In this document: positions 3,166 to 51,170 of the stretch, piece after piece
Numbering within the stretch: the stretch's first letter is position 1
How the letters are laid out: each line of letters opens with the position of its first letter
Origin: Paecilomyces variotii
Taxonomy: Eukaryota
Assembly (NCBI GenBank): GCA_004022145.1
Contig: RCNU01000012.1
Strand: one strand, 5' to 3'
DNA length: 64,000 nucleotides
Notes under the pieces: generated by a model
Seen by the model: the letters and a program-made list of their open reading frames with translations, nothing else
What the model was told of the DNA's origin: nothing
Database searches by the model: none
Made by a program: the position numbers and the translations under genes

Positions 3166-4821
3166 GGAATCAATCTCCGCCCAAACCCCAGGGACGAGGA
3201 ATGAGGATGGACAGTGCAGAATGGGGCCGGCACGCGCAGATGTCCCCTTCGAAGGATTCACAACGGTCGAAGCGGCAACTCGGGCGCGCCGCGGAGAGAA
3301 TGAGCGTCGATAGTCTGGCTAAATATAGGACTTGCTACCTAAGTTGGCGTTCTGGGATGAATGCAGGTCGCTTGTCTGGGTACATCCAGGACGATCAACA
3401 TCGCTTTCACCTCATGTCTTTGAGCGATCGCACGGCAATGAGCATTCCAGGAAGGAGAGACAATGCCATTGCGAATATCAAGAGAGATGAGATGAGAAGA
3501 AAAAGGTTCTAGTCTCTCGCGAGTGGTGACCAAGCAAGCGATCACCGATATATGGTAGACATCACAAGTACAGAGTACTGTCCACTAAGATGCTGAGAGA
3601 CTGTCTACTGTCCTCTCCGCGCGGCCCCCTTTCACTCAGCACATAAGACGAACTCTGACGAAGGCTATAGCTACTTCATTAGCTGCGTTAACCGGAGCAA
3701 AATGGCCCCATTGGCGAGGAGAGCTCACCAAATGGACACTCATTTCTCTTTCAGCTCCCACGGCTGACATCCAGCGAATACGAGCATGAACTAAGGACCC
3801 CTCAGCGGCTAACCGTGGCTGTGCCACGAAATTCACATTCACTGTTAGCTCAAGTAGCGACTATCGAGCGAGAGTGAAATGGTCATTGAGAGCCAGCATA
3901 CAATCTTATTATCATTTTCTAGCTCTGTTCCCGAGTATCGCTTGGTGTGATAGACTATGGATCGATCAATGAGCATGGTTCCATGGTTACGGTACTTAGG
4001 TGCCAGACCTACGAAGAACTAATGAGCCTGTCAGGGTCACAGCTTTAACGCGAAGATTGACCTCGAGTACTTCAATATGATCAACTGCATATGCAGACTT
4101 CATTCAGCTGCTGCAAGGTAAATCTCCTTGTCAATTCACCCTGCCATTGGAATTTGGCAGACCACAATTCTAGACCTGCCATATTTGCTTAGAAGCATGT
4201 CAGCATGTCTTTATCTATGCCAGGTTTAATCAAACAGTTACATTGGAAAGATATTTCATGAGATCCCGTCAAAGATGCTCCACATTCTTGCCTATCTACT
4301 TCTCTAATGGGAGGATGCGCATAACACTGCTTGATGCTATCAACAATCCAGAGCCTGATAGGCCTAGATAAGCTCCTCGATCTCAGTGCTGCTTCTCGAA
4401 TACTGGGAGAACATCAGTATTGCCACTTGCTAGCATGGTCCGTGATTACTTTCGAAGCATGAAAGGTACAACATCCAGGATACGGAATCGAATGCCTGCA
4501 TCTGCGATCGACATCGCAGCCTGAAGAATGGGGAAGGCATTCCACTTCATATCTGTTAGAAAGAGCATAGATTTCCTTCTCCAGATAAATGCTTATTTGA
4601 CTAATTCTATGTTCTTTACAGCATTTGGAATAGTATTCAAACCCACTCTATTCCGGACAGATAATGTTCTCTGTAAGAAGATCCCTAAAAGCCACACCTC
4701 ACAGATAGATGCTAGTCTAGTAGTATCCTTTCCTTGTGTAGCTCAGCAACAAAATCCCGTGATCGTCCGATCTCGTTTCCATTGCCTACGTCGGCCTTCT
4801 AGAAATAATAACTAAGTTAAG

Positions 4822-4960
4822 TGTTACGGAATCAGCAGGCATAGCCCGGGTACGTCAGTACATCACGTGTAGCTAGCATATATTAGCTATTCCCCTTCGT
4901 AGGAATAGACAATTATCTTTTATCTCCTAATTTTATCCAAATCATTAGGATTCATCAATA
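4822..4960 (+). repeat. 5' LTR of outer element (139 bp)
   Basis: Aligns without gaps to 20871-21009 with 18 differences, all C/T or G/A transitions. Confidence 0.95.
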
Positions 4961-4962
4961 AA

Positions 4963-4975
4963 TGGTAGCATGTCC
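4963..4975 (+). promoter_or_regulatory. Primer-binding site of outer element (TGGTAGCATGTCC), probably for initiator tRNA-Met
   Basis: Lies 2 nt after the LTR end. Begins with TGG, complementary to the tRNA CCA end, and TGGTAGC matches the fungal iMet acceptor-end pattern. Confidence 0.7.
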
Positions 4976-6922
4976 CATTAATCCAGGCATTTCTAATTAT
5001 AAACCATTATTCTCTTATGCTTTAAGATTATCGCAGGGCTTTCCTGCTGTCTTATTAAAAGCTAGGTTAATTATCATAATTAATACTGCTAGTATCCCTC
5101 CTCGCTAACTGCACTATATCTACCTTATTAAGATCTTATCAAATACTATTAATATTATTATCAGTTAAGCTCTAGAAACCTTATATAATCAGTCTATTAT
5201 TATATCTATTATTTTGTCTAAGTTCTATTATCTTATTAACTAAAGCCCTTGCTAGCTATTCTATAGTTAAGTTATACCTTAACACTATAGTGGCATCATT
5301 TTTTATTATTTTTTTTATCTCCTATATTATTTTTTATCTCCTTTTAGACCTATATTAACTTATTAGTATTCTACTAAGTACTAATAATAGAACTTATACT
5401 AGAGATTTCCTTACTATCTATTATAATCGAGATTGCTTATTAAATTACTATATTTCGCCGGGTAGAATTGCCCTAAAAGAATAAGTTTAACTATAATACT
5501 ATTAACCTAGTTAACTTTATTATATCCTTCTATAAGAACCCTAAGCTAAGTTAGGATAAACTAAGATTAGCATTATTTGCGTCTGTAGATCAGCTCTTAT
5601 AGATTCTTCTAACCTAGTAAAGTAAGGATCAGACTTAGGCTATATGCGCTTACCTCGATTATCTCGCTAATAGAGAATAGATAGTAGTTTAAACGGAAAT
5701 AGTATAATAAATCTAGTATTTAAAAATAGCCCCAGTTAAGCTTTTATAAAAGGTGCGATTATATATAAGGAGAAAATACCTATAAAAATTCCTATACCTA
5801 TACAATTAGGTTATTAATTAATTAGCCCTTAATTATACTATTAAGAATTTTCTACACTTAATTATTAAGCTAGCTAAATCTCTTATATTTTTATATTAAT
5901 AGAGAGAAATACCTAGAGAAGCTTATAATAAGCCGTTATAACTATTAGGACGGGCACTATAGATATAATATTATATCCTATAGGCTCTAGATACTGCCCG
6001 CTCTTAACAGTTAGTATAGTTAGAACTAGAGTATTAGTTATTACTATTTAGTGCTCCTCTATAATAGCAGCGAGATAGCTAAGGCAATGCTAATAAATTA
6101 ATATTACTATTAGTGCTATTACTATAATTATTAGGATTAGACCTACTAATAACTATTATATATAAGCTCTTATAATTAGATTCTACTAGTAATAAGAAGG
6201 GCAAATCTAAGATAGCTAAATTAAGATTAAGCCAGGGCTCTTTTAGCTATACTAACAACATATCCTATACTATAGCCTCTTCTCTAAATACTAATGCCTT
6301 AATAATATAATTACTGGAGAAGTTAATAACCTAAAATAAGTAAATTCTAGCCTAACTAGGAGAAATAATATACAATAATAATAATAATAATTAGGGTATA
6401 AGAAATATAGAAGATAATAATAAAAGTAAAAACAGATAATATATTATATTGCTATAAGATTTACCACAGCTATTTAATATAATAAGCTCCTTATTATAGA
6501 GATAAGAAGCACTAGGGTACTTCTATTTAAACCTTAAAGATATAGAGTATATAAGTACTAGTGCTATAGTTATAATAGGAGGTTAAACCTATTACCGCGA
6601 TATTAATATATTTATTAAATAAATCTATAACCTCACTATAGTCTATAGTAAAGCTGAGGTTAGGCCTCGTATCTAAGCTTTACTTTATAGACTTATATTA
6701 TTATAATATACTGTTAAACTAACTGATTTTAAATGCGAAGCTCTATATAAATATAATATTAAATAAGGATAGATTAAGCTGCTTATAAAGCGTTTCTGCC
6801 TTAATACTACTACAGCTATATAAGATTTAGAATAACTGCAATATAATATAATAGATATTATCGCCAAATCTATACCTTAAGCCTTTCTCTAATAGGTTAT
6901 CAGATTATTAAGAGCAGCTAGA

Positions 6923-7354
6923 TGTTATGCCCCTAGCCCCCCGCTAGGGCATGAGCTCGCAGGACTGCAGCGAAGCCCCAAATCTAAACGTAATGCCGAG
7001 GTAATCAGTTAAACCCCGCTCTCCCCGCTTTCAGGATTTATATAAGACAAAGCTGGGAAGTGCTTGAGATTTAGAATATAAACAGGCTCTAAATTACTGT
7101 CTTACTAAAAGCCAGCGATCTGTTCTAATATAATATATACCCTATTATTTCCTTACTTGTATAGACTCTTTACTATTAGAACCCTCCGGCGTAAACCCTT
7201 TTTTATACCGGTTAGATTCTTTATTATAACAGTTAACCCTTTATCTCGCTGGTAGACCCTTCTTTAAGCTAGGTGTGCAAAGCTGCTATCTCTCTTGCTA
7301 TAATTGCTAGCAAAGTAATTTGTTAGCAATCCCTAAGAACCCCTATTTTTTATA
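6923..7354 (+). repeat. 5' LTR of inner element (432 bp)
   Basis: Starts TGTTATG right after TSD CTAGA; collinear with 14012-14443, differing by transitions. Confidence 0.95.
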
Positions 7355-7439
7355 GTTTAGATCGCTTATCTTAGCAATATAAGTAGCAGTATCAATATAC
7401 CCTATGATTTAGGGGATAAGGGTCTTAGCGCTTAGCCTA

Positions 7440-10400
7440 TAGTGTATACTCTGAAGGGTTTAGAGAGTGCTGAACCTAGCTTACAGTAACTAATTGCTGA
7501 AGCTAGCTTGCAAATCCTAGGAGATACTCTAACAGGCCTAGGGATAGAGTAAGCTTAAACGGAAGATAAACTATTAATAAAGAGAGACCTTTTATAGCTT
7601 CTCGCCGCTAATTATATTAATAAGCAGCTAAAGCTTAAGCTGCCAGAACTGTAGAGATATAAAGCTACTATACTTAATACCTATTACCAGTAGTACTAGT
7701 ATATAGATAAATACTTAGCTTATAATGCTTTATTATTTAAAGATAAAGCTAAGAAGGTTACTTATACTGCAGTATTATTAGATAGAGAACTAGCTTAGTC
7801 TTAAATCTATTAATAAGAGGATCCTAACTTCTAGATGCTAACCTAGGAAGAATTTAAGGGTTAGTTATTAGATTTGCTTAATAATCTATATTACTAAGGA
7901 TAGAATGCAATAAACCACTTTTATATCTTAATCTAATATCCTAATTAAACTGCCCGAGCTTTCTTACACTATTTTAAGCAGGCTTAAGCAGAGTTAAATT
8001 AGGGTAAAGGGTTTAATAATAATAGAATTATCTGATCTTATATCTTCTACGCGAAACTCCGACCTAAGATTTAGATAAAGTTATTAAACTATTAAGACCT
8101 TCTAATAAACCTTAATTAATTAGCGTTTTTAGCTACTAATTAGGAGATAAACCAGAAGAAGAATAAGATTATAAGTTAACCTACTCTGCTAAATATAAGT
8201 AGATTAATATAAAATGCGCTAAAAGACTCCCCCCTAGGGTAAAAGAGAAAGAAGATTAATAATTAGCGTGCGGAGCTAACTAAACCCTAAAAAAAGAAGA
8301 AGTTTAAATTACTAGTAGAATAAGATTAGCTTAAAAAAGAAGGCTACTGCTTTAACTATAGCAAAATAGGCTATATATAAGGATCTAAATTATACCTAAA
8401 AAAGAAAGACCCCTCTAAGAAAAAAAAATCTAAAACTATTATAGCTTTTTGCGATAAAGGGTTTAAGCTAGAGGAAGAATCTTTATATATCTTAATATAA
8501 CTGCACCTTCCTAACAATATATTTAAAAATAAGGCCTTTATTAATTCTGGATTAGCCCGCTGTTATATTAGCCTAGATATAGCTATATATTATAGAATTC
8601 TTTTAAACTTCTAGCAGTATATAAACTTTAAATCTATTAATAAATATAAAATTCAGAAGTATAGATTATTTAAAGCAGAGATCTATATTATTAATTCTAA
8701 AGGAATAATAGAGAAGATAAAGGTATGCTTTTATATTATCTTAATGCCTAGATTAAATATTATCCTTAGGAAACTATAGCTATATACTATAAATCCTATT
8801 ATAAATTAGGAGTTAATAACTTAGAGATATTATATTTTATATTAGCTATAGGTAAAGATTAAAAGTACTTAATAATTCTCTAAGATAGCAAGAGAAGAGA
8901 TAATCTATATATTTTATAGGGACTGAATTAACCCTATTGCTCCTAAAAACCTACCTCCAAAATATAAAAAGTATACTAAGGTTTTCTTAGAGAAGGGTGC
9001 AAGCATATTACCCGCTAAGACAGGTAAACATAAGATTAAACTTCTAGATAATAAGGCGCCTTTATAGAGTAGACTTTATAACCTTTCTGCTAAAGAATTA
9101 GATATTTTATATAAATATCTTAAAGACATATAATAAAAGAGTTAGATATAACTATTAACTAGTCCTGCAGAGGTATTTATTCTATTTATTCTAAAGGCAA
9201 ATAGTATGCTAAGGCTCTATATTAACTATAGAGCTTTAAACAGTATTACTATAAAAAATAGATATTCTTTGCTTAGGGTAGATAAAATGCTTAACTGATT
9301 AATTAACTCTAAAATCTTTATTAAGCTTAATCTTAGAGATACCTATTATTAGATTCGAATTCGCTAAGGAGATAAATAGAAGATAGCCTTCTAAACCTAT
9401 TATAAATACTTTAAATACTTAGTAATACTATTTAGCCTGTATAATATGCCTGCTACTTTTTAAGCTTATATTAATTAGGTATTGCAGGGGTTATTAAATA
9501 TCTGTTATATTATGTATTTAGATAATATCTTAATCTTCTCTAACTTTATTAAGGAATATAAGAGATATATAGTATAAGTCCTGGAGAGGCTATAAAAGTA
9601 TAAATTATATATAAAGTTATCTAAATATAAATTTTATAAGGAAAGAGTTAAATTCCTTAGTTTTTTTATAGGAAAAGATAGAGTAGAAATAGATTTTAGC
9701 AGAATAAAAACTATTAGAGACTAGCCGGAGCTTAAATCCTTTAAGGAAGTCTAAGTCTTCTTAGGATTTGCCAGTTTCTTTAGAAGGTTTATCTATAACT
9801 ATTTTATAAAGATAGCTCCCTTAACTAGTCTATTAAAAGAAAGTATCCGGGGGAAGAAAATTAGGATATTTATTTAGACTAAAGAAGCTATAAAGGCGTT
9901 TAATAAGCTGAAATTAGCTTTTATAACTCTGCCAGTATTAAGGCACTTTAATCTAGAGAAGCTAATAATACTAGCAACTAATATCTTAAGATTTACCCTT
10001 GCTATTATATTCTTTTAGGGAGATAGTAATAAGATAGCTTCGGGCGCTAAGTTAGAGATAAGTCTGAGAATTAGAACCTAAATAAATTAATAAACTATAT
10101 TTAAGAATTGGCATTTTGTAATATATTATGCCTAAAAGTTTATTAAAATAGAGGCATACTATAAGGTCTACAATTAAGAACTTCTAGCTATTATTAATGC
10201 TTTTAAACATTAGTATTATTACTTAGAAGGTAGTAAATACCCTATATAGGTATAGAGCGACTACGCGAACTTGCGCTATTTCTTTATTATAAAGATATTA
10301 AATAATAGATAAGCTTAGTAGGCAGAACTATTAGTAGTATATAACTTTTAAATTAAATATAAGCCGAAATAGCTTAATACTACAGATGCTCTATTTAAAA

Positions 10401-12130
10401 GGGTAGATTTTAAACTATCTAAATCTAAATCCCAGATAGAATTACTTCTAATCCTCTAGAAAAAGCTTTAGTATAAAACTTAGAATAAGTATATATAAGA
10501 AAGCAGTTTAAAGCATAAACTTGTTAAAACGGGCGGTATAGGTAGTCTAAAATACCTAGTATAAAGAATACTAGTTATTAGGGCAATTAGAGAAGAGTTT
10601 ATTTAGGATACTATAACTCCTAGCTTACTCTTTATATTAAAACAGCTTTAAACAAAAGATACCTTTATCTTAGAGAAAACTAGGGAACTGAAAATATATA
10701 CTCCTAGAGATAGCTTAGAGATAGTATAGAAAATAGATAGTAAAGGACTATTATAAAAGGGTAATACTATATTTATATTAGATATACTCACTATAAAATA
10801 AGAGCTCCTTTAAATATATTATAATAACCTTTATATAGGGCATTAAGGTATTAAGAAGACTAAAGAGCTGTTTTAAAGAAGATTTAACTAGCCTAAAATA
10901 GCACAGGATATATAGGAATATATATCTATATATAATATCTGCCAGAGAAACTAAACTTTATAGCATAGGCTATATAGAGAGCTAAAATCTCTGCTAATCC
11001 TAGCGCAGCTATAGCAGAGTATTTTAATAGATTTTATAATAGGACTATTGCTGTTAGAGAAATAGAGAGTTATCTATAATTTAATATTGGTAATTATAGA
11101 CCGCTATTTAAAGATAGCGCTTTATATCTCTATCTATAAAATATTAAAGGCGGATAAGATAGCTAACCTTATTATAAATTATATTTATAACCGCTTTAAA
11201 TCTCTATAGTTAATTATATTAGATAAAGGGGCACTGTTTACTAATAAATATTAGACAGAACTTTACTATTGTATTTAAATTATTAGACTTCTAAGTATTG
11301 TATTCTACCCCTAGACTAATAGCCAGACTAAAAGGCAGAACTAGATGCTAAAGTATTATCTCTGGGTCTACTCAAACTATAAGTAAGATAATTAGGTATT
11401 CTTATTAATTATAGCGGAGTTTATATATAATAATTTAATCTATGCTTTTATAAATATAACTCTCTTCTACGTTATTTATAGATTTAACCCTAAGAGTTAG
11501 GATAAATATAACTCTAGGAAGCGAACAGATATACTAGCAGTTAATAATTAATTAAAGGAGCTTACTAAAATACGCGCCTAATTAGAAGAATTCTTCTAAA
11601 AGGCTATTACTGCGCAATAGAAGCATTATAATAAGAAGTATAAGCCTAGATCCTATATAGTAGGAGACCGAGTCTGCCTTTTAATAAAGAACTTAAAGAT
11701 AGATCAACCGATTAAGAAACTAGATATAAAATATTTAGGACCTTATAAAGTTATAGAGAGAATTAAAATTTAAGCCTATTAGCTTAGGCTTCTAAAGAGC
11801 CTAGGCAGAATATATTTAGTCTTCTATATCTCCTTATTAGAGCCCTACTATTAGAGACTAGGGGCTAAACCTAAGTATTTAGACTTAATCTTAGTAGATA
11901 ATAAACTAGAATAAGAGATTAAAGCTATTCTAAATAAATAGATAATATAGGGGAAGAAGCAATATTTAATTAAATAGAAGGGCTATTTAGATTATAAAAA
12001 TTTATAGCAGCTTAAGGAGGATCTTAAGCATATCTAAGATATACTAGCTAAATTTAAGGTAATAGTATAAGCTATTAATAAGACCTCTTTAAGAAGGGCT
12101 TTAAGAAGCTCTAGAAAAAGGAGTCGATAA
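7440..12130 (+). pseudogene. gag-pol of inner element, RIP-degraded
   Basis: Gag, zinc knuckle, protease, RT, RNase H, integrase and chromodomain motifs occur in Gypsy order, with numerous TAA/TAG stops. End points are approximate. Confidence 0.85.
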
Positions 12131-12344
12131 AATTAGTAAGATTTCTCTTTTTTCCTATTAGGTTTATAGGTTTTACTTAATTATTTTATTATTAAATTTA
12201 TATTACTCTTTCTCTATTTATCTATTTATAAAGGTTTAGGAGTTTTAATAAGGATATAAGAAGCTAGTCTATCTAGAAATAAATTTATTTTAACCGGGCT
12301 ACCCCTAGCAGGAACTAAAAATATAGGCCTAAGATTAATCCCCC

Positions 12345-13596
12345 CTATTTATCTACTTTACTGTTATAGAACCCTATTAGCATAGATTTATCCTCCTCCT
12401 TATTAGAGAAAGGAGGAATATTATAAGTAATATATATAATTTCTTATATGCGCTGCAGATTTAATACTATTAAATAGAGTAATCTAAGTAACTCTTGCTA
12501 GAGCTATATTATAGATTATTTATATGAAGATAGGGTTAATAGGATAGTAGATATAAGCTTATCTATATCTGCCTTAGTAAGTGCTTTGCGCAGGTATATC
12601 TCTATAGAGGATTTATATTTATTATAGGTCTCCTTAAAAGACCTGTAGTTACTTAAGAGATAGGCCTCTTAGTTAAGGCTCTATAGATAAATAAGCTTAT
12701 TCTTATAAATTAATAAGACTAGAATATAGGGCTTATACTTGCAATTATAATAATTATACTTAATATTAATATTAGCACAGGTATATTAAAGTGCCAGATT
12801 CTTAATTAGCCCCTTTAAACAGTAAAGGCATATCTTTTAAGATATTAGAGAAAACTTCTTACCTGGCTGGGAAGTAATAGAGCTATTTTTTATTATTATA
12901 TTAGTAATAGCAATAGCAGTAATCTTAACTAGCATTTTAATAATAGCTAGTTTAGTCTAGGTCCCTATACTAATAACCTCCTTACGCCCTATACTTTATT
13001 TTTAGGGCCTTTTTATAGTATAAGCGGGAGTTATCCTTAGCTTAATTATAGCGGCTAGCCTAGTAATAGGATAAGTCCTCTTTCTCTTTAATAAGCTTTT
13101 CAGTGCTACTATTAAGTTAGATAGATCTGCCTATATAATAGCTAAGACTATAAAAAAAGGCTAATCTAGTAGAGGTATAAATCTTCTATACCTTAATTCT
13201 AATGTAATATTTATCTTAGCTAATAGATCCTTTATAGGACCTAGGGTAAATAGAGACATTAACCTATTAATAGCTATAAAAGGGATAATACTTATTTAAG
13301 GAGGCGGTTTCTCTAGCATTATAATAATAGCTAAAGTCCCTAATATCTTAGCAATAATTAAGGGATTATTTTCCGGTATTATAGTAGTAACTAGATTTAG
13401 CTATATTATAATAACAGCAGCTATATCCTCTGTCTTAAAGGCAGGAAGAGGGGATAGCTCCCCGGAGGGGGAGGTAATATTCTTAGGCTATTAATACTAT
13501 AGAAATTAATATATAATATATAAAATCTCGCACTAGAATACTTACTTAAGGAATCTTTTTATATTACTTAGATATAAAATAAATTTAGGGCGGCAT
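12345..13596 (-). pseudogene. Antisense accessory gene of the inner retrotransposon: spliced, about 400 codons, with a KRKR motif and a Zn2Cys6-like motif; RIP-degraded
   Basis: ATG CCG CCC at 13596, a GTAAGT..TAG intron at 13545-13497 (phase 0), and an upstream GTAAGT..GCTAAT..TAG intron at 13646-13600. One frame continues to about 12345 with only TAA/TAG stops. It reads CLYCLK..*YTC..KYNYYNCKYKPYILV at about 12830-12720. Confidence 0.7.
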
Positions 13597-14011
13597 TATC
13601 TAAATTAAATTAGCTTATATTAATATAATTAATTAAGATAACTTACCCCTAGAATAGGAAGCTCTAGAAACCAATAAAAAAATAACTAATTTCTTAAGTT
13701 TAATAAACTGCTATACTATTAGTACTATTATAATCTTAAAAATATATCTAGATCTTTATTTAAATATATTTAGGACTAGGAGCTATATATAGTAAAAGGT
13801 AGAAAGATAGTTGCTAGGGGTTAGAATTCTAATCTTATAATATTATATAAATAACACTCTTAGTTTATATAACTTCTTAACTCTTTACTGTGAAGATAAT
13901 AAGAAGCTCCTTTATTTATTATACTATAAACCTCTATGAAGCTATACTCTATATTTAATATAATAATTTTACAACAGCTCGGGGATAAGCCTTTAAAAAG
14001 GGGGAGAATAC

Positions 14012-14443
14012 TATTATGCCTCTAGCCCCCCGTTAAGATATAAGCTTACAAGACTATAGTAAAGCCCTAAATCTAAATATAATGCTGAGGTAATTAATTA
14101 AACCCCGCTCTCCCTGCTTTTAGGATTTATATAAGATAAAGCTAGGAAGTGCTTAAGATTTAGAATATAAACAGGCTCTAAATTATTATCTTATTAAAAG
14201 CCAGCGATCTATTCTAATATAATATATACCCTATTATTTCCTTACTTATATAGACTCTTTATTACTAGAACCCTTTAGTATAGACCCTTCTTTATACCGG
14301 TTAAACCCTTTGTTATAATAGTTAACCCTTTATTTTACTGGTAGACCCTTCTCTAAGCTAAGTATATAAAGCTGCTACCCCTCTCGCTATAATTACTGGC
14401 AAAGTAATTTATCAGCAACCCCTAGGAACCCCTGTTCCTTACA
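14012..14443 (+). repeat. 3' LTR of inner element
   Basis: Preceded by the PPT, ends TTACA and is followed by TSD CTAGA. Confidence 0.95.
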
Positions 14444-17400
14444 CTAGATATAACAGCACTTATAGCTACTTACTCTCTATATAAAATAAGTTATTAGCTA
14501 GTCTTAAAAGAAATATCCTAAGGCTATACTAAGATACTATACTGGTAGAATTTGTTAAATCCCTAGATAAATCCTATATAGTCTAAGAACAATAGACAAA
14601 TAAAAACAGATAGTATTTAAACTGTACTAATATATATAATAATACCTAGTTTTTTTTAACTCTCTCTTAACCCGCCCTAGATTATAATTAACCTAGAGTA
14701 TATATTAACACTAGACAGGCAAGAGATAGAGGATTTATATATAACTAAGAATATAGAGATAACTGTAAATATAGAAATAATTATAAATATAGAAATAATA
14801 AAGAACATAGAGATAATTACGACTAAAAATGCAATATTATATCTTACTCCAGGAATAATATTAGAAATAATAACTATATATCTAATAACTAAAAGTATTG
14901 CTATAACTTATACTATCTATAGAAGAGCTAAGGATAGGCTATTTACTAGTATAACTTATATTATCTAAGAAATAATTAAGGATAGCACTCTAACTATTAC
15001 TAGGATAAGCCCTATTACTTAGAGCCTCGCGCCTACTATAATAGTCTTAAGGACTTACTAGACTATGCTAATAATAATTATATAAAAAGATTCTATAAGG
15101 GCCTTAACTATACTAAAAAGTAAGCAGCTATAAATTATTATAAAGATTATAATAATAAACATTATAAATATAATAGAGAATTTAAGGATAAGCTTACTAT
15201 TTATTATCTTACTATAATATTTACCTTTTAATACTAATTATATTATATACTATTTATATTAAATAACTAGCTCTACCGCTATTTATATAATATAAACTAT
15301 AAGTATTAAGAGGAGCTTACTACGCCCTAATCGGATATATAATACTAGGATAAAATTATTAATACTAATTATATTAAAATTATTAAAACTAAATTACTAT
15401 CCTTACCTTAGTAGTAGCCTAGAAGAATATTTTAAGATTAGTATTATACTATAGCAAGTGTTAATTTAAATAATGCTAAGAAGTAATTTATATACCTTAA
15501 CTGCAGATATACTATAACACTTATTAATTAAGACTTTATATATTATTATATCCCTAAATTAAAGACTATTAGTATTCCTTTAATTATAGTAAAAGGTATA
15601 GGATTTATAATATATATATTTACTAAATATACTACTATCTCTATTAATTTTATTGCGCAATACTATAATAAATCTGTGTGTATATAAATTGCTATTAAAG
15701 TGCACCTAGTTAATAAACTATACGCTAATATATTTATTAGAGTTAATATACTAAGATAATATAAATTTATCTTAGACTTCTCTAAAGCTATTATAATATT
15801 TAATAATATAATAATTTAAATATCTATTTAAGTAAAGGCAAATAAGTATTAAACATTATATTTAGTATATATAGTATAATGCGTAATAATACTTCTATAA
15901 AGCAGCCTTTATATTTCTATTAAGCTTACTAAGGAAAATTAATTTCTTAGTAATAGAGATTATTTTTTTAAGCTATTTTACTTAAAGGTAAGCCTATATA
16001 CCTATATAGTAAATGTTAACTTCTTTTTTATTTATATCTTTAATACTAGCAATTATAAATAGGCGATATTGTAAAAGACTTAGTTAGGTATACTTACTAA
16101 GTTTAAAGATACTAATATATTATATATCTTCTCCTTAGTATCTGCTTTAGCTAAATATCTCTAAGATTAACGGTAATCCTAAAGAGTTATTGTTTGTAAA
16201 TACTTTAATCTTAAATATAAGCTTAATAATAATATTACTATATATAGAGAACTAGAAGTATTATATTAATTTAAAGATCTTATTAGATCCTATAACATAT
16301 AGTCTAATTATAGGTTTATTAATATACCTAAGGACTAATAGCTAATAATTCCTCTAAAAGAAGGTTAGGAATTAAGCATATTTAAATATATAAAGGTCTA
16401 TCTCCTAGGGCCTAAAGACTATAAAGTTATTAATAAGACCTTTAATAAGCTTTATAAGTAAAGATAAATAGAATATACTATAATATATACTCTTAATAGC
16501 TATCCTGTCTTTATAATATAGAGAAATATTAAATATAATGGTTAAATAATATAGAAAGGTTAAGTAGTTATTAATATCTATAGGCTGAACTGTATAGTTA
16601 AGCTAAATATATATCCTATCCCTATATAGAATAATATGCTCGTATTAGTTAATAGTAAAGTATATATCTTAATATTTAATGCTATATTATTTTTCTATTA
16701 ATAGTATATGTATCTAGACTATTATAACTGCTTATTAGTTATCTCTTATTGCAGTTAAGAGGTATTTAATATTGCTATTATAAGATTTTATAATACCCCT
16801 ACCTATATATAATAATAAATAGAGTATTATTTAAAGATATTCTGTTGCTTTACTAGGGTATATATAGATAATCTTTTTATTATATTAAATATTATAGATA
16901 AATATAAAGAATACTTAGATACAGTATTCTCTAAGCTTAATAAGCTAAATATTATATTAAACCCGGATAAGTTATTTATAGCTTTCTTATTAATTTAGCT
17001 ATTAGGCTACTATATTAACTCCTTTAGATTTAGCACCCTAGAAGAAAAGATTAAGGCTATTATTAAATTAACCTTCTTTAAAAATCTTTAGCAGCTTAAG
17101 CACTACTTAAATATTATTAGGTAGTTTTAATAGTATATCCCTAATTATACTATAATATCTGGCCCCCTTTAAGAAAGGAAGAAGCTTTTATTATAGAACA
17201 GTCCTACTAGCAGTTAAGTATATATATCTTATATTAAATAAATAGAATTAATTCTATTACTAGTAAAATTATAGTTATTCTAATAGCTTTAAGAATACTT
17301 TAAATAGCCTTCTTTTCTTATATACTTTACTAATATATACTAGCTCTATATTAATCTAGATACTTATAAAGAAGAATTTAGCGCTATATTATATTATATC

Positions 17401-19692
17401 TATAATAAAGATAAAGCTATAAAAGATAATAGATATCTTTTAATATAGGCTCCCCTTATTAAAGCTATATTAAATTAGTTATATATATAACTAATAATAT
17501 TCCTTAGTTAATAGCTAAATATAGTAAAAAGAAACTACTAGCCTATAAAAATAGAAGTTATATATTTTATTTAAGTTTTTTAAAAAATGTGCTATATTAT
17601 TAAATTAGCGCCAGACTCTTTACCCCTAATTATATTTACTAATTATAGTTTAACTCTTATAATAGTAAAACAGATAACTTTATGCTTAATATCTATAAAC
17701 TAGCTTAATCTTTATTTAATCCTCGCCTTATAATATATGCAAAAGTTTAATATTTAGCTTATTTATAAGCCTGGCGCTGCTAATATTATTGCTAATATAT
17801 TATTGCATTTACTATTTCTAATAATAGAGCCTAATACCTTAATACTTAAAGATGTCAACTATATTTCTTTTACCTATATAGGGGAAGAGAAGAAATAAGA
17901 GCCTATTTATATAATAACCCTAGTTTAAATATAGGAAGAATTTAAGAATAAGATCTTTTAAGGCTATATTATAAATCTATATTAATCCTGCGTGCTAATA
18001 GTATTTAGCTTTAATAAGGCCTTTAGTAATAATGCTGTAAGACTACTGTATTTAAAGCAAGATAGTCTTCTATATATAAAAGACTATAATAGCTAAAAGA
18101 GGCTATATATACCTTATATAGTATTGCTAGAAGTCCTCCGGCTTACCTATAATAATGCCGGGCATTTAGATATTAAGCAAATTCTAAGATATCTAGATAG
18201 TCTAGCTATATACTGCTGCTTAAAAAATATATATATATATATTAAGTACTACCCTTAATATTTATTAAATAAGATATAGTAATATAAGTTATAGGGCTTA
18301 CTTTAGCCTATAATAAGCCCGGCTATTCTATTTTATATAATAATAGTTAATTTTATTCTAGGACTCTTAAATACTAATAGTAAAGACTATTATATATTTA
18401 TAATATATAAGTTTATTAAAAGAGTAATTTTTATTCTTAGTATAGTAATATAGATTACCGCATACTAGGTATAGGTATTATTAAAGTAACTCTGTTTTAA
18501 AGACTAAGAAATCTTATATTGTATAATTTTTAATTAAAATAGAAAATTTCTTTCTTAGTTATAGCATTTACTATTTAAAAAGCTTAATATAAAGCTGTTA
18601 TTTTCTATTATATATTACTTATAAATTAATAAGCAATTTAAGTAATCTAATTAAATAGCAGAATACGCTCTATACTACTTCTTTATATTTCTTAAAGACC
18701 CTATAGTATAGCTATTAGCTCTACCTTAGCTTTAGAAAGTATTAAATTCTATTCCTTCTGCGATTATTAAGTACTCCGCTTATAAACTTTACTATAATAT
18801 TGCTTTAAATATATTAGCTATATTACTTAATTTATATTATACTATATATTAGAGCTTTACTATATATATTAATATATATAAAGCAATTGCTCTTATTATT
18901 ATTAAAGCTAAACGCTAATATAACTATAAGTATACTCTAATATACTTCGCCCCAGACAATAAGGTTCTTGTTAGACTATACCGCAGTTATATCCTACTAT
19001 CTATTAAAAAGCTTAAACCTAAACTTTCTCAGCAATTTGCTAGCCTATTTAAAGTCCTTAAATATATAAGTTGCCTAGTATATAAGCTTAAGCTTCCTAA
19101 GATATAGAATATCTATAATATATTCTCAGTATTGCATTTAGAACCTTATCTATAAACTAATCCCTTTTATTGCCTGCAACTTAAAAATATAAAATACCCT
19201 AAGTTTATAAATAACAATAGCTTTTAGTATTTTAAGATTAATATATTTTTTAATTATTGTCTTACCAGGCGCAGCTATAATAAACCCGAGAGAAAATATC
19301 TTATATATTAGAAAGGTATAGGACCTAAATATAATATCTAGTACTCTTATTGCGAACTTCTTCTTGGCGCTATAGAGCTTATTACTAAATATAATGCGCA
19401 GTATTCTTTATTATTAGAAGAAGTCTCTCTATCTCCTAAATATTACTATAAATAACCTAGGAAAGACTAGGGCCTATCTAACTAGCCCATAAAAAAAAGG
19501 AAGAAAAAAAGGCCTTATAAGATATAGGACTAGACTTTACTTTTCTTTTCTTTACTTTATTATCTTACCTTATCTTTCTATATTACTACTGCTTACTTTT
19601 ATCTTACTACTATTTATATCTATTAAGAATACTAAGTATATCTGCATATTTCCTATTATTTTATCGGATATTTATAACTGCTTTCTTATATT

Positions 19693-20781
19693 ATAGCATT
19701 TATATTATTCAGAATTAAGCAATTTATAGCTAAATTTCGCAAATTCTGTATTAAGCATGCCCTTAGCTATTATTATGCTATTCTGACCTAATAAGCCCTA
19801 GGTTAAAATAAGCCGGACAGACTTCGACAGCTTTATTAAAAAAAAGATTAAAACATTATTATTATAGTTAAAGTTATTTTAAAAAGGGGTTTTCCTTTAT
19901 CGGCCCTCAATATAACTAATCTATATATTTCTAAGGGTGTACTAAAGAATAATAAGCTAAAACAGGCTATTTAGGCCTATAAGGGAAGAATAAACTATAT
20001 TCTTAATATTCTTATTATTGCGCAATAACTCTTGCTACTAAATAAATTAAATATAGCTACTATAAAGACCTAGGTAATAGATAAAAGTAACAATAATAAA
20101 TTTATCTAAATACTATTATAAATAGTAATACCTCTAGTAATACTAATTAATCTATAACTAATATTAAACAACTATGCCGTAAGCTTGCCTAGCTATTAAA
20201 ATAATAAGAATAATATTATTCTATTATTAAAGCGATTCTATTTCCTTATTTTATATTTATACTTTATTATTAACTATAATATAAAGAATATTAATGCCCC
20301 TACGCTACTATGGCCAGTCCTATATAAACCTTAATACCTCCTTATATATCTAGTTAGTATATTGTACAATACTTATGCTAATAATCCTATAAAGGATAGT
20401 ATAATTAAACAGGGTATTAATACCTATATATAGCCTCGGGTTATAAAAACAAATAAATAGAACGGCTATAATATCTAATATATAGATAAAAACGGGCTTA
20501 TTATTAAGGAGAATTTTATTGTCTTTTATATATTATATATTAATTATAAATAATACCTCCGTATAGCTGAAGAGCGATTCTCTATATATATTAACTATCT
20601 TTATCTTCTACAAAATGTTTATAAGGTTAATCTAGCTATATAGATGCTATAATAATAATAATAGGAATAAGACCTATTACGCGCTAATATAACTAACCTA
20701 TCTATAATATAGCCTAATAGGACAGACCCTACTCTCTCGCAGCACTACAGCAGAGAGAATATATTACTTTCTATTAAATAA
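19693..20781 (+). pseudogene. Extra sense-strand ORF (about 360 codons) of the outer element between the chromodomain and the PPT; RIP-degraded, function unknown
   Basis: A single frame keeps coding-like codon patterns. All stops are TAA/TAG, including the run TAA TAA TAA TAA TAG GAA TAA, which reverts to a polyQ tract. Confidence 0.5.
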
Positions 20782-20870
20782 GATAGGTATTTCAAGATAT
20801 TATTATATAACAATATTTACGCATTTATATAGCAGTGAGGACATTATATTCTTTTTAAACTAGGGGGATA

Positions 20871-21009
20871 TGTTACAGAATCAGCAGGTATAGCCCGGGT
20901 ATATTAATATATCACGTGTAGCTAGCATATATTAGCTATTCCCCTTCATAAGAATAGACAATCATCTTTCATCTCCCAATTTCATCCGAATTATCAGGAT
21001 TCGTCAACA
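20871..21009 (+). repeat. 3' LTR of outer element
   Basis: TGTTAC..TCAACA followed by TSD TTAAG. Confidence 0.95.
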
Positions 21010-27483: not shown

Positions 27484-29435
27484 CTAGCACACGGCGTGCG
27501 TCTTGCCGGTCTTACCCTGCAAGGAGTGCTTCTCGTTCTTGTAGTGCGGGTGAGTCTGGGTAACCTTACGGGAGCGCTTCACGAAGTGGCTCATGTGCCT
27601 GCATTAGTGAGAAAATCGATGCGTTAGCTTGGTCTATTCCATCTGAACAGACGATGAGGGGTCTTGTCATTGGCAGATTTTTGGCAAAGGAACGTAGACA
27701 CCGCAAGTTCTGCAGGATTGAAGCAAACGAAAACTCATGGACTTACTGCTTGTAGCGTTCGAGGTTGGCCTTGTCCATGGCCTCGAGGACCTGGAGGGCC
27801 AATTTGATGTCCTGAACCAGGCTGTCACAGCGGGCCTTGGTGAAATCTTCACGCACGACGACACGCATCAGCTTGAGCGCTTCGCTGTGCGGAGCCATGG
27901 TGTAGGCGGGAACAACCCAGCCGCGCTCACGGAGCTGGTGGGCAATAGCGAACTCATCGAAAACATGGTCCTTGGTCGGGTCGAGGCGGAAAGCCACCAG
28001 GGGCAGACCCTGTCCACGGCCTTCGCTCATGATGATGAAGCCGAGTTCCTTCAGCTGGGCAGCCAGGTAATCAGCAGTGCGGGTCAGGTTGACCATGATG
28101 GAGCGGTAGCCATGCTTGCCCAGGCGGATCATCTGGTAGTACTGGCCGATGACCTGGGAAGCTCCCTTGGAGAAGTTGAGGGTGAAACTGGCCTGGTCGG
28201 CACCGAGGTAGTTGATGTTGAAGACAAGTTCCTTGGGCAGGTATTCGGGGGATCGCCAAACAACCCAGCCAACACCGGGGTAGACCTGTTGACATGATCA
28301 GCACATTTTCGGGTATTGTTGCAAGCGGAGTAGCTCCTTACCAGACCGTACTTGTGTCCGGAGACGTTGATCGAGACAACTTTGGGAAGTCTGAAGTCCC
28401 ATTCCAAGCTGGGGTTGACAAAGGGAACAACGAAACCACCACTGGCAGCGTCGACGTGGATTGGGGTATCAAGTCCTCTCTCGATCAAGAGGTCGTTGAT
28501 GGCCTTGACGTCCTCGTACTGTCCGGTATAAGTGGTACCGATGATAGCACAGATACCGATAGTGTTCTCGTCGACGAGGTCGACAGCGGCCTTAGGGTCG
28601 ATGACGTAGCGGTCTTCCGTGCAGTAAACGTACTTCTCTTCGATGTCGAAGTAGCGCGCAGCCTTCTCCCAGCAAACCTGAACTGCACTGTTCATGACGA
28701 TGTTGGGTCTCGAGGTGTCCTTGCCCTCGGCCTTGCGCTTGTTCTGCCAGCGTCTCTTCATGGCGAGGGTTGCCAGCATGATGGCCTCTGAGGAACCAAC
28801 GGTGGAAGTGCCCATCGCGTGATCATCCTTGTCGTCCGTCGGGGCGTTGAACAGTCTGGCGATCATGTTGACACAGCGGTTCTGGATCTCTGCGGTCTGC
28901 GGGTACTCCTCATAGTCGATGAAGTTCTTGCTGAACGACTCGCACATGAGCTTCTCGACCTCCTCTTCCTGCATAATTGGTGAGCATAGTCGCATTTTGA
29001 GGCAGCGTCACGCCGTGTTTAGCGCAACAATTGAACAACATACCATGTATGTGGTGACGAAACTCGCCAGGCTATAGTCAGGAAACCAGTCAGCATTTCG
29101 GTTCTTAGAGCATGTAGAAATATCACCAGCCTGCGATTCCACGCTGTGGCCCTAAAACATGAGGAAACCATGGGAAGGGAAGGTTCTTACTTGAGCATTG
29201 GGTTACCATCCAAACTCAATTCATCCTTGATCATCCGGTAGGCGACATCACGAGGCATCTCCTTCTCGGGCATCTCGGTAGACGGCAGCTGCTCGATAGC
29301 AAAGCGGGAACCGTAGACACTCGAGTAGAACGCATCTTCACCCTGCGGGGCATCCAGACTCAGAGTCTCGACACCTTCGCTGAGCGAGCGAGTCAGGGCT
29401 TCAGAGTCCTTCTTGACGGGGGCGAGGTGCACCAT
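27484..29435 (-). CDS. gad1: Glutamate decarboxylase (PLP-dependent), 5 exons, about 517 aa
   Basis: Exons 29435-29191, 29071-29044, 28968-28342, 28285-27747 and 27598-27484 splice in frame. Motifs [30 protein letters not shown] (PLP lysine) and the C-terminus [10 protein letters not shown]. Confidence 0.97.
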
Positions 29436-39052: not shown

Positions 39053-40372
39053 TCATGCACGGGAAACCTTTCGTTTGCGTTTTCTAGCTATCGTTTGAGG
39101 TTTTCGCGGTGGAACTTTACTGATCTCGGCTTCTCCTGAGACTAGGAAGTCAAGACTCGTGCCGCGGTATGTCTTTGGCCGGCGGGACCTGGATATTTGT
39201 GGCCAATCGCGCTGCCGGTACCCTTTCTGCGTAGCCTCACATCTCTCGAAGTGCATCTGAATCTCAGTGGACAAGTAGGCACGTTGGAATAAGCGTATCT
39301 GCTCAGAAGTGAGTTTGGAGGTACCATACCACAGATAACCACAGGCGCTACAATACATGCCGGGCTCTGCCGTTTGTGTGCGTTTGTCCCAGAAAGGGAA
39401 GAAAGTCGAGCCTAGTGGTTCAGGTTGATATTGGTTCAAGATAATTCGCTTCGTAGACTCTATCGCTCGGGGCAAAGGCGGTTGCTCGATGAGACGACCA
39501 TCCACAGTATAGCAGAAGTTGTGACCTCGCATTTCGGGCCCGAGAGACAAACGTATCCTCCTTGGATGTGTAAACACTTCCGTAACTAGACGGCCGTCTG
39601 CTGTATAGCAAGGGCCGTGCTCGATGTGCTCGGCCCATTCCTTGCGCCATTCTGTATTGCAACGTTTCACAGCCTGGTCCAACTGGGATTCATCACCGTA
39701 TATCCCCATGCTAAGTTCGTAGGCCTGTCTGACGCTGACAAGTTGAAGACGAGGACAGCTCCGAACCTCACACCAAATATCCTCCATGAGTGGATAAGAT
39801 GATATATTCATCGGTATATTGTCAAGAGCGACAAGGCGTTTGATGGCATCTTCTGGGAGAGCGAAGACCGCCTTGGCACTCGAGACAAATGCCAGCTCGT
39901 ATTCACTGTGGCTTCGAAGACAAGTGTAGCAGCAGCGGGAACACGAAGGGAGGAAGAGAAAGGGGCCGAAATCCATGCACGTTCGACAACGAGGGTAGCA
40001 CATCTCCGCGAAGATCTGCCCTACGGACCATCGCGAGTCTACCTTGACTTTGCGCATGACACGCAAGGTTTGACGGGCATGGTTCTTCAGGATCAGATAC
40101 GCCGGAAAGGAGTCAACGAGCTTCCGATAGCGCGAGTTGAGTAGACGTATTCTGCTCGTACTCTCGTAATCGAGGCTCCCTAGGATCTCATACATGATAT
40201 CCAAGGGGATCGATCCTAGATATCCTGCTGACGGGGGTTCCGCGTTCATCTCTCCCAGGCCTGACTCATCAGACCGGGCGAGCGTGAGTTTTTTGGGGGT
40301 GCCCCATGTCCTGAATGCATCGAGCATCTCACAGGACGGCCGGGTCAAATGGTAGGCGACCCCTGAAGCCAT
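39053..40372 (-). CDS. F-box domain protein with a Cys-rich region (439 aa, single exon)
   Basis: F-box LGSIPLDIMYEILGSLDYESTSRIRLLNSRYRKLV, Cys motif CRTCMDFGPFLFLPSCSRCCYTC, and C-terminal CSAC..HFERC. Confidence 0.85.
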   Translation of the reverse strand: MASGVAYHLTRPSCEMLDAFRTWGTPKKLTLARSDESGLGEMNAEPPSAGYLGSIPLDIMYEILGSLDYESTSRIRLLNSRYRKLVDSFPAYLILKNHARQTLRVMRKVKVDSRWSVGQIFAEMCYPRCRTCMDFGPFLFLPSCSRCCYTCLRSHSEYELAFVSSAKAVFALPEDAIKRLVALDNIPMNISSYPLMEDIWCEVRSCPRLQLVSVRQAYELSMGIYGDESQLDQAVKRCNTEWRKEWAEHIEHGPCYTADGRLVTEVFTHPRRIRLSLGPEMRGHNFCYTVDGRLIEQPPLPRAIESTKRIILNQYQPEPLGSTFFPFWDKRTQTAEPGMYCSACGYLWYGTSKLTSEQIRLFQRAYLSTEIQMHFERCEATQKGYRQRDWPQISRSRRPKTYRGTSLDFLVSGEAEISKVPPRKPQTIARKRKRKVSRA

Positions 40373-49464: not shown

Positions 49465-51170
49465 ATGAGAGTCCTTCCTGCTACGCTCTTGGTTGGAGCT
49501 GCAACTGCTGCTGTTCCTCCAGCTCAGCAGATCCTGCAGCTCCCCAAGAAGGGAGCTGATAGCTTGGCCAAGCCGCTTCACCAGATCCAGGAGCAGCTGA
49601 AGTCGCTCACGGATGACGCCAAGTCTCTCTGGGATGAGGTTGCCAACATATTCCCAGATTCCATGGACCACGCTCCCTTCCTGTCCCTGCCCAAGAAACA
49701 CACTCGTCGCCCTGACTCCCACTGGGACCACATTGTCCGTGGATCTGACGTCCAGAGCGTTTGGGTCACCGGATCAAACGGCGAGAAGGAACGCGAAGTT
49801 GATGGAAAACTTGAGGCTTACGACCTCAGAGTCAAAACGGTCGACACCAGCGAGTTGGGTGTCGATCCGGACGTGAAGCAGTTCAGCGGTTACCTGGACG
49901 ACAATGAGAATGACAAGCATCTCTTCTACTGTAAGTGTCCTTTCCCGTCTAGTCCAATGGTCTGTAACAATTGGTACTGACAAAAGAAAAAGGGTTCTTT
50001 GAGTCTAGGAACGATCCGGAGAACGACCCTGTCGTCCTTTGGCTCAATGGTGGACCCGGTTGTTCCTCTCTCACCGGTCTTTTCATGGAGCTTGGGCCTA
50101 GCTCGATTGACGAGAACCTCAAGGTTGTTTACAACCCTTACTCGTGGAACAGCAACGCCTCCGTCATCTTCCTTGACCAGCCAGTCAATGTCGGTTACTC
50201 CTACAGTGGATCCGCTGTGAGCGACACGGTTGCGGCCGGCAAGGACGTCTATGCTCTCCTTACCCTCTTCTTCAAGCAGTTCCCGCAGTATGCTAAGCAG
50301 GACTTCCACATTGCTGGAGAGTCCTATGCCGGACACTACATCCCCGTCTTCACCTCGGAGATTCTGTCTCACAAGAAGCGTAACATCAACCTCAAGTCGG
50401 TCCTCATCGGTAACGGTCTGACCGATGGCCTCACTCAGTACGAGTACTACCGTCCCATGGCTTGCGGTGAGGGTGGATACCCTGCCGTCCTTGACGAGAG
50501 CACCTGCCAGTCAATGGACAATGCTCTTCCTCGTTGCCAGTCTATGATCGAGGCTTGCTACAACAGCGAGAGTGCATGGACTTGCGTTCCTGCCTCTATC
50601 TACTGCAACAACGCTCTTCTGGGTCCTTACCAGCGCACCGGCCAGAACGTGTATGATGTGCGTGGCAAGTGTGAGGACAGCAGCAACCTGTGCTACAAGG
50701 GTCTCGGTTACATCAGTGACTACCTGAACCAGCCTAAGGTCTTGAAAGCTCTTGGTGCCGAGGTTGACGGGTATGATTCGTGCAACTTCGACATCAACCG
50801 CAACTTCCTGTTCCATGGTGACTGGATGAAGCCCTACCACCGTCTGGTTCCCGACATTCTCGAGCAGATCCCTGTCCTGATCTATGCAGGTGATGCTGAC
50901 TTCATCTGCAACTGGCTTGGTAACAAGGCCTGGACTGAGGCTCTTGAGTGGCCTGGCAAGGAGAAGTTCTCGACGGCTTCGATGAAGGACCTCAAGATCG
51001 TCGACAACGAGCACAAGGGCAAAAAGATCGGCCAGTACAAGTCGCACGGTAACTTCACCTTCATGCGCCTGTATGGTGGCGGCCACATGGTTCCCATGGA
51101 TCAGCCTGAGTCCAGCCTGGAGTTCTTCAACCGCTGGCTCGGAGGCGAATGGTTCGGTTCCAGCCATTAA
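49465..51170 (+). CDS. cpyA: Vacuolar carboxypeptidase Y (serine carboxypeptidase S10), 2 exons, about 547 aa
   Basis: Signal and propeptide, intron 49931-49992, [10 protein letters not shown], nucleophile motif [15 protein letters not shown] and GGGHMVP. Confidence 0.97.

Follow-up and report, generated by a model that had tools for sequence, protein, structure and literature searches.

We found that a 64,000-nt stretch of Paecilomyces variotii DNA (contig RCNU01000012.1, assembly GCA_004022145.1; the whole stretch is referred to below as the window) contains, inside a Ty3/Gypsy retrotransposon with long terminal repeats (LTRs), the relic of a protein-coding gene that runs on the strand opposite to gag-pol and has been degraded by repeat-induced point mutation (RIP). 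This antisense gene occupies positions 12345–13646 or beyond, between the end of pol at about 12130 and the start of the 3′ LTR at 14012, and lies within the LTRs and the target-site duplication (TSD) that bound the element; an earlier note on this DNA, made from its letters alone, had likewise placed it in a Gypsy element. We consider it likely (probability about 0.75) that the stretch is an accessory gene of a Paecilomyces Ty3/Gypsy retrotransposon, arranged tail to tail with pol on the opposite strand before the 3′ LTR and killed by RIP.

The element that carries the gene, here called the inner element because it is inserted in an older one described below, is complete and spans 7,521 bp on the plus strand (6923–14443). 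Repeat matching and reading of the ends defined a 5′ LTR at 6923–7354 and a 3′ LTR at 14012–14443, which share a direct repeat of 423 nt with 85.6% identity (6925–7347 and 14014–14436). Both the 5-bp TSD, CTAGA (6918–6922 and 14444–14448), and a purine tract just 5′ of the 3′ LTR (13995–14008) could be read directly. Pfam searches with the read-through translation located a gag-pol relic at 7400–12130 on the plus strand, a single frame of which carries RVT_1 (E = 3.9e-16), RT_RNaseH (3.7e-10), Integrase_H2C2 (3.1e-7) and SH3_Tf2-1 (5e-12), with the reverse transcriptase (RT) at 9188–9665 and SH3_Tf2-1 at 11663–11848. A chromodomain, which had been read as ending at about 12130, was recovered only as a weak match at about 11915–12058 (E = 0.022, below the cut-off). 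The order of RT, RNase H and integrase, the LTRs and the 5-bp TSD are those of a Ty3/Gypsy chromovirus, with Chromo below the cut-off, and the distance from the end of pol to the 3′ LTR is 1.9 kb. The pol frame now holds 117 stops in 1577 codons (density 0.074). Moreover, the RIP index TpA/ApT is 1.5 in pol and 1.45 in the antisense gene versus 0.62–0.74 in the flanks, and the index (CpA+TpG)/(ApC+GpT) is 0.48 and 0.51, respectively, versus 1.2–1.3. The inner element, antisense gene included, is a RIP-mutated repeat.

Across 12345–13646 the minus frame is interrupted by 26 stops in its 434 codons (15 TAA, 11 TAG and no TGA), its plus-strand partner has 29 in 433, and the other four frames have 48, 51, 59 and 71; equal openness of the other five frames, which the earlier note had named as a check on itself, was not observed. 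A lowest-stop frame with 26 stops or fewer arose in only two of 2000 dinucleotide-preserving shuffles, and a second-lowest with 29 or fewer in none of the 2000. The stop density of the antisense frame (0.060) is, moreover, below that of the RIPed pol frame. Stop counts alone cannot decide the strand, because the two open frames are in the same register as pol and the most open of its antisense frames. A codon table built from the element's own RIPed pol, which chose the true frame in five of six held-out pol segments, scored the minus frame best, at −3.654 per codon, followed by the next frame at −3.680, with the plus partner at −3.729. Pfam searches with all six read-through frames of 12100–14013 yielded no match at E ≤ 10.

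With the X-read translation of 12345–13490 as query, a full HMMER search (phmmer) across 1.84 billion representative proteins retrieved seven of them at E ≤ 0.001 (P0001–P0007; best E = 7.2e-34), and profile searches added four more homologues (P0008–P0011) for a total of 11. Eight of these are named, as 'hypothetical proteins', seven from P. variotii and one from P. lecythidis (P0004), and three are unnamed (from Logan, ENA and JGI); neither the phmmer nor the profile searches returned a named homologue from any genus other than Paecilomyces. A word-indexed protein search with the RIPed translation gave 4480 candidates, none at E ≤ 1, and missed relatives that phmmer found. P0008 (135 aa) aligns with the spliced window sequence over 133 positions without a gap and across the junction between the start-codon exon and the main exon, with 85 identical residues, and none of the 48 differences needs anything other than C>T or G>A, compared with a mean of 13.4 and a maximum of 24 in 1000 permutation trials. 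The differences to P0002 (37/37) and P0007 (10/10) are likewise all of RIP type, and an excess of this type was found even in the more distant paralogues P0001 (81 of 112; null 27) and P0004 (53 of 121; null 23). P0008 has R or Q opposite each of the six window stops that align to it, and P0001 has one of these residues opposite nine of its ten. In the C-terminal half, the window has stops at codons 234, 251, 286 and 290, each opposite an R, Q, K or N, while those at 341, 345, 347 and 365 sit in poorly aligned columns, and the proteins end almost where the window frame does, P0004 and P0006 two residues before its TAG and P0007 one residue before. Codon likelihood, minus-frame homologues and the 48 RIP-type differences out of 48 to P0008 together support the antisense strand as the coding one, and they bear out the earlier claim that this is the relic of a real antisense gene.

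The paralogues P0008, P0001 and P0009–P0011 have diverged to 60–78% identity, and identity between P. variotii and P. lecythidis is 27–45%, with six cysteines, a C-terminal motif and the positions of start and stop kept. P0001 is un-RIPed and identical on five contigs (under four listed accessions, of which two bear the names of different P. variotii strains, DTO027B5 and DTO169C6). In its AlphaFold2 model, a long single helix at residues 182–247, with a predicted local distance difference test (pLDDT) score above 90 from about residue 190, replaces the Cys-rich C-terminal half, and this form could be a second form of the gene, a domesticated copy or a mis-spliced gene model. Metagenome scans for the genomic context of the homologues gave 309 and 590 pattern matches, none of them confirmed.

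Two introns on the minus strand are supported by colinearity with these annotated Paecilomyces proteins. The spliced reading, 13596–13546 joined to 13487–12345, amounts to 398 codons, is interrupted internally by 18 stops (TAA or TAG in every case) and would encode about 397 residues, in good accord with the frame of roughly 400 codons and 20 such stops described in the earlier note. Its start-codon exon (13546–13596) has 17 codons, is basic and aligns with residues 1–17 of P0008 and P0001, its three RIP stops standing opposite R, R and Q in these proteins. The main exon (12345–13487), delimited from the phmmer matches to P0001–P0007 and from codon likelihood, has 381 codons including the terminal TAG at 12347–12345. 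The two exons lie in different frames, and P0008 and P0001 are colinear with the window over residues 17/18 only after removal of 13545–13488, a 58-nt phase-0 intron of the form GTAAGT…TAG (intron 2) over which the P0008 alignment is gapless. The earlier note had correctly recognised this intron but ended it at 13497; the resulting 49-nt intron would leave three extra codons in the reading, including two stops, with no counterpart in any homologue. Intron 1 (13600–13646; 47 nt, GTAAGT…GCTAAT…TAG) shifts the frame by two, and it is only once 13646–13600 is removed that the P. variotii proteins P0009–P0011 become colinear with the window. Upstream of it lies a further exon (13647–13800, its upstream limit undefined), the last 20 or so codons of which are colinear with P0009–P0011, whereas farther upstream the window frame is dense in stops. 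We observed that the P0009–P0011 models reach 28–50 residues upstream of the shared Met and cross intron 1, with an extension that varies by deletions. P0001, P0004 and P0008 begin at the ATG, P0009–P0011 read the upstream exon as coding, and Met is present at that position in all six. The intron that had been assigned to the 5′ untranslated region (UTR) is thus backed as an intron, but both readings of its place, in the 5′ UTR or within an N-terminal extension of the coding sequence, stand. The other landmarks marked in the earlier note (ATG CCG CCC at 13596, KRKR at 13088–13077, GTAAGT at 13646 and 13545, GCTAAT in intron 1 and a Cys/Tyr segment at 12830–12726) are all present in the sequence at those positions.

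The antisense gene, moreover, belongs to a multi-copy element, as supported by contigs from three runs of three studies with the same species label, which we placed on 10500–14436 (2385, 1539 and 1427 contigs, respectively). These covered 30 of 30 bins, the intron bins like the rest, and variant sites in the gene (12629 and 13257) were seen in 12–30 contigs, compared with 23–41 at a site in pol (11089). Between-copy differences in run X1 amounted to 1010 transition sites (353 C>T, 376 G>A, 161 T>C and 120 A>G) versus 14 transversion sites. Of the few majority differences listed, four fall within the gene or a short way upstream of it (12629, 12673, 13553 and 13654), and at each the other copies keep the un-mutated C or G, which restores a residue found in the homologues. 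None of the 15 contig joints listed, of 17 in all, removes either intron. The contigs are 200–500 nt long, and among those listed none bridges pol to the antisense gene. RIP acts on duplicated DNA, so its presence in the antisense gene is consistent with a repeated sequence. A separate 163-nt contig with adapter-like flanks, from a run (X20) labelled as another organism and guessed to be of RNA, equals 13852–13989 without a difference and says nothing on expression.

The protein would have a basic N-terminus, a Pro/Ala-rich disordered half with a patch resembling a nuclear localisation signal (NLS), a six-Cys module, a helical hairpin with a third helix and an acidic tail. Disorder in the N-terminal half is predicted from the AlphaFold2 model of P0001, in which residues 11–171 mostly have pLDDT below 50 (model mean 56). 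The NLS-like stretch contains KRKR (13077–13088, minus strand), and its counterpart in P0001, residues 141–180, has 13 K/R and one D/E. The six-Cys motif maps to 12726–12830 on the minus strand by alignment with P0004, P0005 and P0006; four of its cysteines are now Tyr through TGY>TAY changes, and the six columns hold only C or Y in the window and the three proteins. The spacing that the earlier note had back-inferred by reverting such changes, C-x2-C-x11-C-x8-C-x2-C-x6-C, is present letter for letter in intact P0004 (Cys 93, 96, 108, 117, 120 and 127). The window has two further cysteines here, at columns where P0004 shows R and S. The first of them (R in P0004 and P0006, C in P0005) could be an Arg-to-Cys change made by RIP; we have no explanation for the second, which stands opposite S, G and S. 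Basic residues predominate in the module (13 K/R versus four D/E in P0004 residues 81–140). It is followed in the AlphaFold2 model of P0004 (mean pLDDT 47) by helices at 132–151 and 154–183 (pLDDT 72–79 for these two) and at 196–220, and then by an acidic tail, the last 23 residues of P0004 (221–243) having no K/R and seven D/E. In the window this tail, with a conserved PPFSD-like motif, was mapped by alignment to 12348–12416 on the minus strand, and the ten differences to P0007 counted above, all of RIP type, bear on this part. We also observed that residues 1–17 of P0004 are Arg/Gly/Pro-rich and resemble what we take to be an AT-hook, which, if real, would suit binding to AT-rich RIPed DNA.

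Canonical Zn2Cys6 clusters are spaced C-x2-C-x6-C-x5-12-C-x2-C-x6-8-C. The module described here is like them (PF00172) in its six cysteines, the C-x2-C-x6-C of its second half, an eight-residue linker, basic surroundings and helices followed by an acidic end, but differs from them in the first spacing, 11 rather than 6, and in lying in the C-terminal half and not at the N-terminus. PF00172 gave no match at E ≤ 10 for P0004, P0005, P0006 or the window frames, and with this and the first spacing of 11 we did not file the protein as a member of the Zn2Cys6 family. Among structure neighbours in the ESM Atlas, Zn_clus-bearing clusters made up five of ten and seven of ten rows, with query-normalised template modelling scores all below 0.5, and the best feature score was 0.91, to an unnamed Ascomycota cluster; we treat both as leads only. 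The six-Cys module resembles a fungal zinc cluster and probably binds zinc, a conjecture from sequence.

A working model for the gene starts from its orientation. Introns would survive retrotransposition because, being antisense to the genomic RNA, they are not spliced there; they would be kept in the RNA that is reverse transcribed, and each new copy would inherit an intron-containing gene. An antisense promoter of the gene's own, within or beside the 3′ LTR, would drive a transcript that is then spliced, and the product would enter the nucleus and act on the transcription, chromatin or integration of the element. As to function, the proposal we rank first, though tentatively and at less than even odds, is that the protein would bind zinc and nucleic acids in the nucleus and regulate how its own element is expressed or integrated, in parallel with the antisense genes of the plant elements Grande and Retand and with HBZ of HTLV-1. 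A more specific version is doubtful: that the element encodes its own transcription factor, a divergent two-zinc, six-Cys DNA-binding protein that is translated from a spliced antisense mRNA, would bind the LTR or AT-rich RIPed DNA and would switch transcription or chromatin.

Several observations weigh against an accessory gene of this kind. The homologues are automatic gene models and not complementary DNAs, and none of the 11 spans both halves: P0001 joins the N-terminal half to a different, coiled-coil end, and P0004 has a start like that of the start-codon exon followed by the C-terminal half. What joins the halves into a single reading of 398 codons is the continuity of the frame in one RIPed copy. 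The position antisense behind pol is known from the window copy, contig depth is not copy number, and transcription is something we infer. Regarding the protein, Pfam searches with P0001, P0004, P0005, P0006 and P0008 gave only a chance ATP-grasp match (E = 0.12), and a search of PDB sequences with a profile of the C-terminal half gave one chance match (E = 1.1) and no zinc-cluster chain at E ≤ 10. Foldseek against the PDB returned generic helical bundles, with none of the 500 listed matches at E ≤ 0.001, and the block-mean pLDDT over the Cys stretch of P0004 is 27–42. Zinc and DNA binding are conjecture because a Pfam match, a PDB relative and a reliable model of the Cys region are all wanting; and the variant Zn2Cys6 cluster inferred in the earlier note finds no support in the first spacing or the PF00172 result, with a fold that is modelled at low confidence.

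Other explanations would place the coding capacity, or its origin, elsewhere. A third ORF (open reading frame) on the sense strand, in an env-like position, of which the minus frame is merely the open complement, could be entertained since no more than 29 stops interrupt the 433 codons of the plus frame and the frame pair is in a pol-like register. We find this hardly credible, however: codon likelihood prefers the minus frame by 0.075 per codon, and the minus translation brings up seven homologues and shows RIP-type differences together with a start codon, a stop codon and introns, while the plus translation is I/L-rich and matches nothing in Pfam (the protein-database search covered the minus translation only). 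Nor do we favour a remnant of another mobile element, inserted in reverse behind pol and fixed in the family, although an interval of 1.9 kb between pol and the 3′ LTR is long for a fungal chromovirus. Such an origin is listed as possible for antisense ORFs (PMC7264820, cited here, like the other articles, from excerpts of its text), but no terminal inverted or direct repeats and no target duplication were found around the gene, its six frames hold no transposase, RT or other Pfam domain at E ≤ 10, and nothing similar occurs elsewhere in the window; we hold it to be very improbable. Only a little more credence goes to an antisense unit that acts as RNA alone, as a source of double-stranded or small interfering RNA that restrains the element, with an ORF devoid of protein function. 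Antisense transcription has itself been raised as a regulatory route in the excerpted text of PMC7264820, and RNA and protein roles are compatible with each other, but the persistence of the six cysteines, the C-terminal motif and the start and stop positions between P. variotii and P. lecythidis, at the low identity given above, is a point against RNA alone. The main rival, which we judge unlikely, is a passenger, that is, a host gene or part of one that was captured by a single retrotransposon lineage and amplified with no role in the element. Gene capture by LTR elements is documented (PMC7264820, in part), the family is confined to Paecilomyces in our searches, and P0001, un-RIPed and identical on five contigs, is as expected of a single-copy host gene. 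Captured genes, however, are usually present in one or few copies according to the same excerpts, whereas several diverged paralogues and many RIPed copies in three strains fit evolution together with element subfamilies, and introns and start codon have been retained. An accessory gene of the element is the reading we prefer.

The inner element lies in an AT-rich block of 17 kb (about 4000–21000; GC 0.22–0.35) set between stretches of about 50% GC. Its host is an older and more heavily RIPed Gypsy element that spans about 4800–21000, with LTR remnants at 4822–4958 and 20871–21007 (137 nt still matching, 88%), a GC content of 0.234 across 14449–20870 and an SH3_Tf2-1 match at about 18961–19150. 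In tblastn searches, similarity between this outer element and the inner pol or the antisense gene was not detected, and no second copy of either was found in the rest of the window. Beside the block we noted host genes for a pyridoxal phosphate-dependent decarboxylase (28129–28995; E = 4.7e-54), an F-box-like protein (39053–40372), a serine carboxypeptidase S10 (50085–51170; 2.3e-97) and a beta-lactamase-family protein (57695–58831; 1.3e-67). Of seven long ORFs taken from the GC-normal part, four have an identical entry in the protein collection; the named members of three of their clusters come exclusively from P. variotii or P. lecythidis, and the fourth cluster, of carboxypeptidases, extends over Aspergillus, Penicillium and Paecilomyces, as expected of DNA from P. 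variotii or a very close relative.

This setting agrees with excerpts of the description of the P. variotii genome as two-part, with AT-rich regions made of RIP-mutated retrotransposons that include the 'Tf2-type' Tn123 (Urquhart et al., 2018; PMC6300479). Tn123 is from the same species, its RIPed copies make AT-rich blocks, and its published length of 7,091 bp compares with 7,089 bp for the inner element minus one LTR (PMC6300479, in part). Length and host hint that the inner element probably belongs to the Tn123 family. The published Tn123 coordinates may span just one LTR, and the word 'antisense' is absent from the text of that paper. According to the same excerpts, P. variotii is transformable and crossable and RIP has been demonstrated in it experimentally (PMC6300479), so that the function of an antisense retroelement gene could be tested there directly. 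The gene is also invisible to ORF callers in RIPed DNA, and its un-RIPed copies are annotated piecemeal as unrelated 'hypothetical proteins' of 89–248 residues, annotations that could be put in order by treating them as a single gene carried by the element.

LTR retrotransposons with an additional gene on their reverse strand have been recorded in a few plant lineages and in a single fungal case, and for none of these genes is a function proven. The Paecilomyces gene has a recognisable architecture and two spliceosomal introns that have to come through retrotransposition without being spliced out. In the literature on Tn123, on Zn2Cys6 retrotransposon genes and on antisense ORFs of Eurotiales and Aspergillus, no description of it was found among the matches listed. 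It is a further case of antisense genes already known between pol and the 3′ LTR, with a protein family for which we found no description, so that the 'undescribed system' of the earlier note was an overstatement. Antisense additional ORFs (aORFs) in this interval have been reported, in the available excerpts, for Grande (gene23), RIRE2, Retand and PvRetro13 and, in fungi, for Boty (brtn) (PMC7264820). Those of the plants (maize Grande gene23, rice RIRE2, Silene Retand with a TRP28 domain, and PvRetro13) share both position and orientation with the Paecilomyces gene and are present in most copies, with Grande's having its own promoter, and some of their products are nuclear or predicted to bind DNA, none with a shown function (PMC7264820, PMC11963269). 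They differ from it in belonging to plant non-chromovirus lineages and in encoding unrelated proteins, the Paecilomyces gene having no PF04195 or other Pfam match, and the word 'intron' does not occur in the text of PMC7264820 or PMC11963269. The closest likeness is to brtn of Boty, known from Botrytis cinerea and from Sclerotinia (Zhao et al., 2011, Virology 417:248, as cited in excerpts of PMC8365987, PMC7264820, PMC4227169 and PMC5987419), also a fungal Ty3/Gypsy element with a chromodomain pol and an extra gene on the opposite strand between pol and the 3′ LTR (PMC8365987). The two elements differ in their hosts, Helotiales versus Eurotiales; no Botrytis or Sclerotinia protein appeared in searches from the Paecilomyces family, and BRTN itself was set beside our gene by description only.

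If the transcription-factor reading were true, the gene would be a fungal counterpart of HBZ, the spliced basic leucine zipper (bZIP) nuclear product of HTLV-1. In the working model, both would be antisense genes at the 3′ end of a retroelement that are spliced and encode small nuclear regulators, and the antisense promoter of HBZ lies in the 3′ LTR (PMC7264820, in part). HBZ differs in coming from a human retrovirus and in being a bZIP rather than a Cys-rich protein, whereas transcription and splicing of the Paecilomyces gene are inferred. On that same reading, the antisense introns would be a built-in device that carries a spliced gene through reverse transcription, and retrotransposons of this sort might be one source from which new zinc-cluster regulators arise in fungal genomes.

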